From an uncultured Spirochaetota bacterium (GTDB lineage Bacteria > Spirochaetota > Brevinematia > Brevinematales > JAOACQ01), in NCBI GenBank assembly GCA_963835575.1, contig CAWIGG010000002.1, forward strand, positions 416,001-480,000: a stretch of 64,000 nucleotides of DNA, given 5' to 3'. Positions within the stretch are counted from its first letter, which is position 1; every line of letters starts with the position of its first letter. The position numbers were made by a program, and so were the translations under genes. The notes beneath the pieces are model-generated. The model was not told the DNA's origin, searched no databases, and saw only the letters and a program-made list of their open reading frames with translations. Below are positions 39,900-63,903 of the stretch, in pieces.

Positions 39900-40209
39900 A
39901 ATTTGCCACGGAGACAGAGTACACAGAGGTCTGGGTTGATATTGGTGTGTCCGGTGATTAGTGGCGCTTTATGGCGGATTTACAGGCATTTATTATAATA
40001 GACTGTAATGGAAAAAAAACAGGAAGCCGGGAAGGCTTGAAGAACTACGAAGGAAAGGAACGGAAACCGCAAATGGACGCGAATAAACGCGAATGGGAAT
40101 TGCGGGTGATGCGTGAGTTTTTGGGTGTCTTTTGAATTAAACGGAACGAAAACGGTGCATTATTGTCAGGAATTCGATGTCTGATAACGATAGGACAGCC
40201 ATAGAAAGG

Positions 40210-47203: not shown

Positions 47204-47294
47204 TAGCTATTAGCTATTAGCTATTAGCTATTAGCTTTTAGCTATTAGCCCGAAGCCAGAAGCTAGAAGCTAAAGGCTAAAGGCTAATAGCTGA
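47204..47294. repeat. Inverted heptamer tandem array (TAGCTAT)n / (RGCTARA)n
   Basis: About 6.5 units of TAGCTAT followed by about 6 complementary degenerate units. Confidence 0.85.
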
Positions 47295-57704: not shown

Positions 57705-58465
57705 TTAATCTAAAGGAGATTTTTGTGTGAACACGCAGAGATATTCTACATTGCCGCTCTTCTGTCCCTGATCGGCGATTCGATGACTTCGCTATGACTT
57801 AATCCGATCGAATCCGAGTAACCAAGCACATGATCAAGTGCTTCCTGCCGGTGCTCTGAACTCACGAGACCTTTTTTCCCGACCCTCTTTTTGTCCAGCT
57901 CGAACTGCGGCTTGATGAGCGCGATTATGATGGAGCCTTCCTTTAATATCCGGGACACCGGTCCCAGGATTTTAGTCAGGGATATGAATGAGACATCGAT
58001 GACGGCTAGGTCAGGCCTTGGATCAAAAACAGTTTGATCGATAAACCGGGCGTTTGTCTTTTCCATGGAAACGACGCGCGGGTCTTTCCGGAGCTTCCAG
58101 TCCAATTGATTGGTACCGCAATCAACGGCATAAACCCTGGCGGCCCCTCTTTCAAGAAGCGCCTGTGTGAATCCGCCGGTCGAGGCCCCGATATCGACGG
58201 CGGTTTTACCCGCGACATCAATATGAAAATGGTCCATCGCATGGAAAAGCTTGAGGCTTCCTCTGCTGACATAGGGAAAATTTTCCCTGATGCGGATTTG
58301 CGATTCAATAGAAACGGAGGTCCCCGCCTTTGTGACCGGGACTTCATTAATCAGCACTTCCCCGGCAAGAATGAGGGCCTGCGCCTTCTGCCTGGATTCA
58401 CAGAGGCCTTTTTTGACAAGAAGGACATCCAGCCTTTCTTTTTCTATATTTTTTTTATTTTCCAT
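57705..58465 (-). CDS. tlyA: TlyA-family rRNA methyltransferase; apparent 1-base deletion near 57767
   Basis: S4 domain, YVSRG.LKL, DIGASTGGFT, DVSFISL, LIKPQFE; adding one G restores SPIRG..GNVEYL to stop 57705. Confidence 0.9.
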
Positions 58466-58519
58466 ACATAACCTTTAAAATTAGCTATAATTGCCACAGG
58501 CACGGAGATGGTATGATAT

Positions 58520-58750
58520 TCCTGCAAAAGAATCATAGGTGATGTAACTTTAATTCGACGGAATTAAAGGGCCGGCGGCACAGGTTGTCCGTGTCGTGGG
58601 ACAAATCGATGGAGTAACATCGAAAGATCCCGTCACAGAGATTAATCGTCAACCGGCCACCGAACATCCTTGTGTGAGTCGGGGTCTTGACCCCTTCATC
58701 ACGTATAGAAGTAAGGTGTTACACGCTTATGATTTTAAAGCCCCTTGGTT
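58520..58750 (+). ncRNA. Putative IS110 bridge RNA
   Basis: Non-coding left end downstream of the junction promoter; several hairpins; segments matching target (cacagag) and donor (atagaag); boundaries approximate. Confidence 0.6.
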
Positions 58751-58779
58751 CTGTTAATTTTATTAAAAAGGGGAAAAAG

Positions 58780-59874
58780 ATGCAAGAAAAAGTTGGTATT
58801 GCCGGAATTGATTTAAGCAAGAGAAGCATGGTCGTTGTACGGTTGACTGATGGAGGAGAGAAAGTTCAGAGAGGTACTTTTACAACGAACCGGATCGGCA
58901 GAGAACGTTTTATGAAGTGGTTAAAACCCGAAGACACGGTTTACATTGAAGCCGGAAGCAGTTCATTCGGGTTAGCGAAAGAAATCAAGAATGAAGTCAA
59001 AGCAGAGGTTATTGTATTGAATCCCGGCGACATAGCTATGATATACAGGTCATTGAAGAAGACGGATAGAGAAGACGCGTTAAAATTGGCAAGATTGGGA
59101 TTGAGAATACCGAGAGAAGAATTGCCCGAAGTTGCCATTCCTTCAGATGAAGAGGAGGATTGCCGGAGACTGATAAGCGAACATGCTTTTTATACTAAAG
59201 AAAGGACCGGTTTGATCAACCGGCTGCATTCTGTATATTATCAAGCAGGATTAACGGAGCTGACAAAAAAAGACCTGAAGACAAAAGTAAACCGGGATAA
59301 TAGTTGCCGGCTCTTAAGCGAGAGATATTGCGGTGAGGCAAAGCGATTAATGAAAAGGATAGATGAAATCGAAAATGATTTGGAAGAGATTCATAACAAA
59401 GCAATAGAAGTATTAAAAAGCCATTTGGACATAACATCTATTTATATGTCGATGACAGGAATAGGGCCTATAATCAGTCTCGCTTTGTTTTCACACATAG
59501 GGTATTTTGACAGGTTTTCGAAGGCAAAGCAGGTAAGCAATTATGTAGGATTAACTCCAAGGGTAGATCAGTCCGGTAATACAGAAAAAAAAGGAAGAAT
59601 CAGCAAGAGAGGCTGCCGTCAGATCAGAAGAGTTATTGTGCAGGGAGCCTGGTCTTTAGTTCGGTCAAAGAAGAAAAGTCCATTAAAAGATATGTTTACA
59701 CGGATTTGTGTTTCAAGAGGCAAGTTTATAGCTATTACTGCTGTGGCAAGAGCAATGATTGAGATACTATTTTATATGGTTAAAAGACGGCAATATTATT
59801 ATGGAACCAGTCAAACAGAAGTTCTTAAAAAGCTTCGGTTTTATGGTTTATTAAATTCAGGCCAAGGGGCTTGA
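58780..59874 (+). CDS. IS110-family recombinase/transposase
   Basis: GIDLSK, IEAG, KTDREDA (DEDD); GIGPI, YVGLTPRVDQSG (catalytic Ser region). Confidence 0.95.
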   Translation: MQEKVGIAGIDLSKRSMVVVRLTDGGEKVQRGTFTTNRIGRERFMKWLKPEDTVYIEAGSSSFGLAKEIKNEVKAEVIVLNPGDIAMIYRSLKKTDREDALKLARLGLRIPREELPEVAIPSDEEEDCRRLISEHAFYTKERTGLINRLHSVYYQAGLTELTKKDLKTKVNRDNSCRLLSERYCGEAKRLMKRIDEIENDLEEIHNKAIEVLKSHLDITSIYMSMTGIGPIISLALFSHIGYFDRFSKAKQVSNYVGLTPRVDQSGNTEKKGRISKRGCRQIRRVIVQGAWSLVRSKKKSPLKDMFTRICVSRGKFIAITAVARAMIEILFYMVKRRQYYYGTSQTEVLKKLRFYGLLNSGQGA

Positions 59875-60022
59875 CAAATAACATAGAAGGACACAGAGGC
59901 CGGAAAAAATTTGGGGTTGTTTAAATTAATGCCCTTATCCTATTTTTATAAATTTTAAGATATAATAAGTAATTGAGGGCTATTATAAAACATATAAATT
60001 AAATTAACATTCAATATTATAA

Positions 60023-60057
60023 CTCTGTGCCCTCTGTGTCTTCTATGTCTCTGTGGC
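60023..60057. repeat. Right arm of the 9-mer repeat array interrupted by IS110
   Basis: Reverse complement gccacagagacatagaagacacagagggcacagag. Confidence 0.75.
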
Positions 60058-60839
60058 TACCTCAAAAACCCGGTCAACGGCGAGCTGGCGGAAGCCGTTT
60101 TCTGTTCTTCCCTTAATTTTAAAAGATAGGCGGTCCTGCCGGCCTGGACGGCAAGGGAAAAAGCCCTGCTTATGGCAGCCGGGTCTTCCGATGTGGCTAT
60201 CGCCGTATTGACCAGGACTGCGTCCGCGCCCAATTCCATTGCTTCGGCAGCATGGGAAGGCCTGCCGATACCGGCGTCGACAACAACTGGCAGCTTTGAA
60301 TTTTCAATGATCATCTCGATAAAATCCCGCGCCTTTAAGCCCCTGTTTGAACCGATCGGCGAGCCCAACGGCATTACTGCGGCGGCCCCGGCGTCATAAA
60401 GCTTTCTGCAGGTGACCAGGTCCGGCTGGATATACGGCATAACGATAAAGCCTTCTTTTGCCAGGATTTCCGTAGCTTTGACCGTTTCCTCGTTATCCGG
60501 CATCAGGTATTTCATTTCATGGATCACTTCAATTTTAATAAAATTGCCGCAGCCCATTTCCCTGGCCAGCCGCGCGATCCGGACGGCTTCGCCGGCGTTC
60601 CGGGCGCCTGAAGTGTTCGGCATAAGCGTGACATTTTTCGGGATGTAGGACAGGATATTCTCATCGCCGGCCTTGCTGTCCACCCGCCTGAGGGCCACGG
60701 TAATTAATTCCGAAGAACTGGCTTTCAATATTTCGGGAATAAGCCGCGGGGAAGATAATTTCCCGGTGCCGATAAAGAGCCTGCTGGTGAATACTTTGTC
60801 CCCGATTTTTAAAACGTCAGTTTTATTTTCTTTATTCAA
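60057..60839 (-). CDS. thiG: Thiazole synthase
   Basis: [45 protein letters not shown]. Confidence 0.96.
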
Positions 60840-63855: not shown

Positions 63856-63903
63856 AACCACCAAGAACACCAAGGGCACAAAGATCACTAAGGACCATCA
63901 ACG
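63856..63903 (+). repeat. CAC.AAG 9-mer tandem array
   Basis: caccaagaa caccaaggg cacaaagat cactaagga; a related unit at 63978-63994. Confidence 0.65.

Follow-up and report, generated by a model that had tools for sequence, protein, structure and literature searches.

We analyzed a 64,000-nucleotide stretch of DNA from an uncultured bacterium of the Spirochaetota (Brevinematales; contig CAWIGG010000002.1, positions 416,001 to 480,000 of the forward strand), hereafter the window, with a focus on an insertion sequence that lies between a tlyA/FtsJ-like gene (57746–58465, minus strand) and thiG (60057–60839, minus strand). The element codes for a transposase with the domains of the IS110 family, preceded by a left end of 272 nt and followed by a right end of just 15 nt after the stop codon. 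It interrupts one of two facing arrays of short words beginning with CAC. The features of the locus, numbered from the first position of the window, are as follows:

58508–59889, plus strand: complete insertion sequence of 1382 bp, including a single AG core, assigned to its right end
58780–59874, plus strand: transposase/recombinase gene, 364 aa (Pfam DEDD_Tnp_IS110, 4.6e-15; Transposase_20, 1.5e-23)
58548–58717, plus strand: predicted core of the bridge (or seek) RNA, comprising a 5' hairpin, target loop and donor loop (fold, covariance model and stem covariation)
58589–58595, plus strand: guide CCGTGTC on the 5' strand of the target loop, complementing the core G and the right flank
58634–58642, plus strand: guide CACAGAG on the 3' strand of the target loop, followed by AT; the same as the left flank plus core
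58705–58711, plus strand: guide ATAGAAG on the 3' strand of the donor loop; the same as the last 7 nt of the element
58512–58520, plus strand: left subterminal inverted repeat (9 bp, 1 mismatch, 4 nt from the end) with the −10-like TATGAT (58512–17)
59871–59889, plus strand: right end, with the −35-like TTGACA (59871–76), the subterminal inverted repeat (59877–85), GA and AG (59888–89), from reading of the sequence and comparison of ends
58501–58507, plus strand: left target half plus core, CACGGAG, adjoining the element; one base off the loop 7-mer, which the flank of the second copy matches at 7/7
59890–59899, plus strand: right target half, in which the interrupted CAC array continues (sequence reading and array search)
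60023–60057, minus strand: partner array in inverted orientation, forming one convergent pair with the interrupted array

The element, its second copy and its transposase

The ends at 58508 and 59889 were derived from an alignment of the flanks of two identical copies, in combination with the matches between guides and flanks. The source genome (G000; 7 contigs, 4.39 Mb) holds both copies; the second lies on another contig (C5:6904–8285, minus strand), shows 100% identity to the window copy across the 1382 bp, and has CACAGAG as its left flank and ACACGG as its right flank. On the left, the flanks of the window copy (CACGGAG) and the second copy (CACAGAG) have only GAG in common directly against the element, and on the right they diverge directly past ...ATAGAAG. 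The left junction reads ...cacggAG (AG at 58506–07) followed by ATGG and then TATGAT; at the right junction TTGACA is followed by 13 nt ending in AG and then by gacacagagg. Both junctions had been quoted in an initial annotation of this DNA and are present in the sequence; the extent that it gave, 58493–60057, starts 15 nt too early and takes in 168 nt of flank up to thiG. The element has no terminal inverted repeats and no target duplication, and its two ends and the target have a short core in common. AG stands before the left end and closes the right end in both copies and also in the relatives of the element.

In a relative from the same genus (G004; L070:1430–1500) tlyA and thiG are only ~10–15 bp apart. 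Because these genes nearly abut there, the whole 1.59-kb tlyA–thiG spacer can be taken as inserted DNA, a comparison that does not give base-exact ends. The array pair and the insertion sequence, like the AT-rich spacer, are thus additions specific to this lineage, and they are nested, in that the array pair came first and the insertion sequence then entered its left arm. No alignable empty site was found in the same genus, where the relatives are only 66–72% identical in tlyA. The element appears to have been active recently, the sole sign of recent movement being the identical second copy. For the host the event is an ordinary one, in that an intergenic repeat was entered and no gene was disrupted.

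The transposase exceeds the Pfam cut-offs for both PF01548 (RuvC-like DEDD domain, 56.2 bits) and PF02371 (serine domain, 83.4 bits). Its residues D11, E57, D96, D99 and S265 align with the conserved acidic and serine positions of IS621 (chain 8wt6_A). The catalytic serine of IS621 is S241 in the accessible text of PMC11208158. Overall, the protein is remote from both IS621 and ISCro4, with E-values of about 1e-11 (8wt6_A, E = 6e-11). Among the matches listed, the nearest named element is ISLin1 of Leptospira (47.5% identity over 98% of the protein), a name taken from the annotation of a plasmid record. Assignment to the IS110 or the IS1111 group by transposase sequence was attempted and failed, as the PDB matches are remote and the plasmid matches besides ISLin1, from a spread sample of 25 of 3185 records, are at most ~36% identical. 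Closer relatives were retrieved from genome contigs by an alignment query. They include an element in a family relative (G009) that is 71% identical to the window element, and, together with two metagenomic elements (L007 and L008), this group has transposases 67–69% identical and left ends ~89% identical to those of the window. A decayed relative (L016:964–1728) lacks the RNA's first loop and the beginning of the transposase gene, and retains the second loop and the right end.

The left-end RNA and what its loops read

The sense strand of 58524–58779 folds with a minimum free energy of −91.7 kcal/mol (z = −6.3), which none of 200 shuffles equaled, and G–U pairs indicate that the sense strand is the RNA strand. 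The consensus fold obtained with RNAalifold comprises an outer stem and a 5' hairpin together with two internal loops; the first is closed by GGCCGG/CCGGCC and has the inner stem GGGA/UCCC, and the second holds an inner hairpin of its own. The RNA probably starts near 58524, and its outer stem is predicted at 58535–58730. Among four close elements, the differences in the left end are concentrated in two short stretches, the loop strands, with the remainder ~89% conserved. A covariance model of 58548–58717, built from 4 left ends with the loops left unpaired, yielded 41 full-length matches among 49 sources, upstream of the gene and on the sense strand, in relatives down to ~35% protein identity. 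The window RNA scores 201 bits against this model, and ISLin1-like elements of Leptospira score 55–62 bits. In an alignment of 34 distinct rows, 93.7% of the cells are paired, a share that falls to 76.5% after shuffling and to no more than 52% when the partners are slid; both sides are altered in 35 of the 42 stem pairs, and none of 500 shuffles attains any of these measures, counts that overstate the significance because the alignment was fitted to the supplied structure and its rows are kin. Thus, the left end is predicted to specify a structured RNA with two internal loops between conserved stems, as is characteristic of bridge RNAs and seekRNAs. A search of Rfam over 58000–60500 matched no family (best E = 2.2). 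Between the RNA core and the start codon, a further hairpin predicted at 58744–58779 would cover the ribosome-binding site; it is kept in four close relatives, which offer few informative changes.

The guide 7-mers occupy the internal loops between the covarying stems. All three motifs that the initial annotation had singled out within the left end are indeed present, namely CACAGAG at 58634–40, GTCCGTGTC at 58587–95, in the 5' strand of the target loop and complementary to the right flank, and ATAGAAG at 58705–11. That annotation had made the placement of such 7-mers in stems, and the insertion of other copies at sites unlike CAC.GAG, grounds for rejecting its proposal. The 7-mers lie in internal loops and covary with the flanks across relatives, and the second copy stands at a CAC.GAG site.

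To compare guides with flanks, we began with the 44 plus-strand rows recovered with an nhmmer profile, from which 3 duplicates (of the window element or G009) and 8 others were removed. The latter had truncated or degenerate left ends, fewer than 9 guide columns, or an inferred boundary without a −10-like box; L057, L061 and L065 were removed as their inferred boundary fell on an upstream repeat copy. With the two copies of the window element added by coordinates, the set comprises 35 insertions with 20 distinct guide pairs. These showed a correspondence between the loop and the DNA abutting the element. First, the loop 7-mer reads CACAGAG in the window element, CGCGAAG in G009, CACCAAG in L007 and TAAGAAG in L008, and each is the same as that element's own 7-nt left flank (for the window element, that of the second copy). 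Across the set, the loop 7-mer equals the abutting flank in 27 of the 35 insertions and is one base off in 7 more; counted over the five non-core left positions, the agreement is 5/5 in 27, 4/5 in 7 and 3/5 in the remaining one. In non-cognate pairings only 23 of 380 match at 5/5, and none of 20000 shuffles of the flanks attains the observed mean. Guides without CAC likewise track their flanks, as with TAAGAAG, TTTGGAG and TCCATAG, the last in 9/9 copies in one Leptospira genome. Second, the longest exact complement between the right guide and the core plus right flank averages 5.2 nt in cognate combinations (15 pairs) and 3.32 nt in non-cognate ones, and again none of 20000 shuffles attains the cognate mean. 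The right guide is perfect over 7–8 nt in the second copy (7/7), L008, L012, L013 and the L026/L036/L024 group, and it extends to 6 nt in G009 and L025; L027 and the window copy each have 5 nt. We considered and ruled out one constant register for this guide, as the perfect 7–8-nt matches fall in two registers, which place the core one nt apart relative to the inner stem. Third, the left guide is followed by AU, which corresponds to the dinucleotide with which the element begins, and in L013 AG stands at both positions; this agreement fits the handshake rule as given in the accessible part of PMC11208158. Thus, loop segments covary with both halves of the target, as in bridge RNAs and seekRNAs.

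A mundane explanation for such a left end is that it is merely a 5' untranslated leader controlling the translation of the transposase, with the protein picking the target and the matches to the flanks being coincidental or echoes of low-complexity sequence. The hairpin that could cover the ribosome-binding site would suit such a leader; moreover, the target words are simple and the right end of the element itself resembles one of them. However, the 7-mer tracks the flank across 20 distinct guide variants, including those aimed at targets without CAC, and the variable positions of the left end concentrate in the two loop strands while the rest is ~89% conserved. We therefore regard the leader as a highly improbable account of the left end.

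The donor loop of the guide RNA shows a corresponding relationship to the right end of the element. Its 7-mer shifts along with the right end in relatives, as ATAGAAG, ATAGGAG and ATAGGAT (L012), and in every full-length locus it located the right end, 13 nt past a TTGACA-like box. In L012 the core is AT, rather than AG, in the target, the right end and both loop 7-mers.

The two ends also bear subterminal inverted repeats, which in the window element span 9 bp with 1 mismatch and lie 4 nt in from either end. Repeats of 6–12 bp are found in 16/16 distinct elements, in three of which they reach only 6 bp, and the terminal extensions, if the core is assigned to the right end, are 4 and 4 nt in 11/16. 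When the ends are joined at a single AG, a TTGACA-17-TATGAT arrangement can be read off the sequence by eye; the initial annotation had proposed it, and the spacing of 13 + 4 = 17 nt holds. We consider this a putative junction promoter, whose TTGACA-like box is retained in most relatives. Among sequencing runs on record, none registered as RNA contains the stretch; one DNA run contains a small share of it, in 4 short contig pieces that have no joints.

Arrays of CAC words as the landing site

The target belongs to a class of dispersed repeats, for which three observations are pertinent. First, CAC triples in the genome are concentrated at two periods (94 at period 9 and 56 at period 10, compared to 1–6 at the other periods tested between 5 and 15). 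CAC..AG pairs number 136 at period 9, compared to at most 20 at neighboring periods (22 at 17 and 51 at 18), and the corresponding triples number 34 at period 9 versus 0. Second, the genome has 166 arrays of at least 3 CAC..A units spaced by 9 or 10 bp; 142 of them are located outside open frames of 120 codons or more, though such frames cover 87% of the genome. Third, neighboring arrays on opposite strands are convergent in 32/32 pairs, 11–365 bp apart. The ideal site for the guide straddles two consecutive CACAGAG words, taking in the end of the first and the beginning of the second, in short intergenic arrays of such 9-bp words.

The particular word read by the guide is not a common one. 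By their commonest word, the arrays are mostly of the AGAA (40), AGAT (38), GAAG (26), GGAA (14), CAAG (14) and AAAG (10) kinds, and only 7 are of the guide-matching GGAG/AGAG kind. In the window CACRGAG occurs 16 times against 6.3 expected, a count attained by 1 of 100 shuffles; genome-wide, the 7-mers are not enriched (CACAGAG, 239 vs. 215 expected; CACGGAG, 170 vs. 176 expected). The proposal of a repeat-class target thus stands insofar as the target class is new, but its word is a minor variant in a much larger family of CAC arrays and the 7-mer itself is not enriched. Similarly, arrays do exist at all five places that had been named in the window, but the CAC(A/G)GAG word is found only at 39905, 43322 and 60023, with CACAGAT-type words near 816 and CACCAAG/CACAAAG at 63859. 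Relatives in other genomes have guides and flanking arrays of CACCAAG, CACGAAG, CACAAAG, CACGGAT and CGCAGAG words. Overall, about half of the 20 guide variants are aimed at CAC/CGC arrays and the others at different sequences, including a 31-bp Leptospira tandem repeat.

At least some of the array pairs are associated with a nuclease-like gene. The convergent CACAGAT arrays at C5:384512–385107 (L073) enclose a complete 125-aa gene of the PDDEXK_3 ('GxxExxY') family (E = 3.5e-38), and fragments of PD-(D/E)XK genes lie between arrays at C2:746835–747395 and C6:107806–108351. In being dispersed, intergenic and organized as inverted pairs, the arrays resemble repetitive extragenic palindromes (REP) and REPINs. 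An association with RAYT (a tyrosine transposase) was not found, the complete gene between arrays being PDDEXK_3, though no search of the genome was aimed at RAYT. Among the papers listed for GxxExxY, none is concerned with such arrays, to go by the titles. Elsewhere in the window, 47204–47287 consists of a heptamer tandem repeat (TAGCTAT × 6.6), followed by more period-7 repeats.

Within the partner array, 150 bp from the element, a minus-strand 9-mer at 60040–60048 is the same as the last 9 nt of the element. This 9-mer occurs 14 times in the genome, two of the occurrences being the element's own ends, and the unit holding it differs from the facing unit of the interrupted arm by three transitions.

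The presence of that 9-mer so close to the element could be taken to mean that the element itself generated the arrays, as footprints or by-products, and that they did not exist beforehand as targets. Set against this are the 166 arrays for only 2 copies of the element, most of them using words unmatched by its guide. The arrays are also convergent in all 32 of the pairs, at least one of which encloses a PD-(D/E)XK gene, and only three transitions separate the unit with the 9-mer from the one that faces it. We hence find a footprint origin scarcely credible and treat the arrays as targets that were in place before the element.

Strand logic, mechanism and implications

A comparison with the characterized RNA-guided elements places this one between the two known groups. 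In the accessible text of PMC11208158 and PMC11208160, the left guide of IS621 is on the 5' strand of the loop (~nt 53) and pairs with the bottom strand; the right guide is on the 3' strand (nt 77–80) and pairs with the top strand, with the handshake nucleotides 81–82 next to it, and the core is CT. The IS110-group layout in the same text of PMC11208160 is a guide RNA upstream of the gene, a long left end and a very short right end. The window element resembles IS621 and ISCro4, as described there, in its DEDD and serine recombinase and in a guide RNA located in a long left end, which in this case would likewise be transcribed from a promoter at the circle junction, to go by the sequence. It further shares with them a pair of internal loops that each read both strands about a 2-nt core (except that we identified no guide for the left end of the element itself), handshake-like nucleotides after one guide, and a dispersed intergenic repeat as the natural target.

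The differences from IS621, as far as that text describes it, concern the order of the guides. Within the target loop of the window element the order is reversed, with the complement of the top strand (58589–95) coming before the match to the bottom strand (58634–40). The handshake-like AU follows the latter, and not the top-strand guide as in IS621; moreover, the left guide spans 5+2 nt, compared to 7+2 in IS621. In contrast, the IS1111-type order in the accessible text of PMC11187229, with the gene-sense complement first and the identical guide second, is that of the window element. The IS1111 seekRNA elements ISEc11, ISKpn4, ISPa11 and ISPst6 also resemble it in combining subterminal inverted repeats with short terminal extensions, in targeting other repeats or the ends of mobile elements (REP, attC), and in the natural reprogramming among relatives that the same text describes. 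The subterminal repeats of 6–12 bp seen here differ from the 2–3 bp reported for the IS110 group, and repeats of ~7–17 bp, as characterize IS1111, are found in our element. Nevertheless, the non-coding RNA region of IS1111 elements is placed by that text downstream of the gene for the transposase, whereas it is upstream in the window element and every matched relative, and the terminal extensions are 4 and 4 nt here (6 and 2 with the core on the left) compared to 7 and 3. A few IS1111 exceptions with an upstream non-coding region, such as ISMtsp17, are mentioned there; we found no description of their RNA in the accessible portion of PMC11187229.

Reading the target and donor on the antisense strand gives the exact arrangement of IS621, and hence the 'AG core', which the initial annotation had presented as new, is CT, the usual core, when read from the transposase gene's antisense strand. 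The likeness to IS621 that it drew also needs revision, as the guide order and subterminal repeats are IS1111-like and only the position of the RNA is IS110-like. One could still assign the element to the IS621-type bridge recombinases (IS110 group) and regard AG as a truly different core, with the left guide first and the right guide second; its upstream guide RNA, long left end and very short right end are what the IS110-group layout in the accessible text of PMC11208160 leads one to expect. However, the guide order is opposite to that given for IS621 in the accessible text of PMC11208158, all 16 of the distinct elements have subterminal repeats well beyond the reported 2–3 bp, and the reading on the other strand fits a CT core throughout. 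These considerations make an IS621-type element with a new core unlikely.

By the covariance model, ISLin1 from Leptospira has the same left-end RNA as the window element, and the two also agree in the 7-mer rule and the subterminal repeats. The guides of ISLin1 are TCCATAG, CCCATAG or CCAATAG, and a different repeat holds its copies; at one locus this is a 31-bp tandem array. ISLin1-like copies in Leptospira (L061:785–908; L059, L065 and L043) lie in or beside such 31-bp tandem repeats, each unit of which contains the 7-mer read by the ISLin1-like guide. No paper in the literature collection searched links 'bridge RNA' with Leptospira; ISLin1-like elements may already figure in the supplementary guide tables or trees of PMC11208160 and PMC11187229.

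Taken together, these results lead us to conclude, with a probability of roughly 0.9, that the window contains an RNA-guided element of the IS110/IS1111 family that is intact and was recently active, and whose left-end RNA reads both the target and the element's own right end. The claim of an IS110-family element with a left-end guide RNA aimed at a repeat family was accordingly borne out by the protein domains, the covarying stems and the covariation of guides with flanks. The anatomy, the second copy and these two kinds of covariation were established in this analysis, and from them we infer circle formation, promoter activity, expression and processing of the RNA, and the recombination chemistry. 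Under this proposal, the element would excise as a circle in which the right and left ends join at the shared dinucleotide, and the joined ends would create the TTGACA-17-TATGAT promoter. This promoter would drive transcription of the left end, to give a two-loop bridge (seek) RNA of ~200 nt, and of the transposase gene downstream of it. In the target loop, CACAGAG (3' strand) would pair with the left target half and core on their antisense strand, and CCGTGTC (5' strand) would pair with the core G and the right target half on their sense strand; ATAGAAG, on the 3' strand of the donor loop, would do likewise for the element's own right end. The recombinase, with its DEDD and serine domains, would then exchange strands at the core, which is CT on the antisense strand. 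The mechanism is a known one, in print since 2024; the target class is new and the layout uncommon.

Several observations weigh against this interpretation, in addition to the caution attached above to the stem statistics. The right guide is weak in a number of elements, with complementarity of just 3 nt in L007 and L010 and 4 nt in L029, L032, L011, L051 and L009, and its register varies by one nt (0 in L008 and L013; −1 in G009 and L026). The right flank of the window copy itself fits the guide at only 5 nt, shifted by 1; the window insertion looks like one at an off-register or second-best site, with the second copy in a perfect site. For the donor-loop strand expected to read the element's left end (58662–58671), we found no convincing complementarity or covariation, and none emerged when it was compared across relatives with the first 10 nt of the element in contiguous, bulged or distal registers. 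The genome has only two copies of the element and no free perfect site for the ideal 13-mer is left in it; at 1 mismatch there is one free site, in an array on C3, and at 2 mismatches there are 43, of which ~25 are in an unrelated repeat and about nine in arrays. That unrelated multi-copy repeat, probably a further insertion sequence, occurs in ~25 places (e.g., C2:365679 and C2:498916), and its copies have 37 or more identical bases in common.

Beyond the window, we tentatively propose, at somewhat less than even odds, that the ISLin1-like clade represents a third layout of RNA-guided DEDD recombinases, which would combine the strand logic and subterminal repeats of IS1111 with a guide RNA moved before the gene. 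In the spirochaetes, its target loop would have been rewritten repeatedly to follow the word variants (CACAGAG, CACGAAG, CACCAAG, CACAAAG and CACGGAT) of the inverted arrays that bracket small PD-(D/E)XK nuclease cassettes.

The element offers a natural experiment on the programming of bridge and seek RNAs, as about twenty guide variants can be read against their junctions, including one in which the core is changed in all four places. It also indicates that the placement of the RNA before or after the gene is separable from the strand logic of its loops, a point that matters for how the two groups, IS110 and IS1111, are related and for which orthologues lend themselves to engineering. Finally, the target links two mobile systems, in that uncharacterized word arrays around small PD-(D/E)XK genes serve as landing pads for the element. 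If the broader proposal is true, the ISLin1-like clade would be a guide-programmable parasite of another, still undescribed, family of mobile elements.

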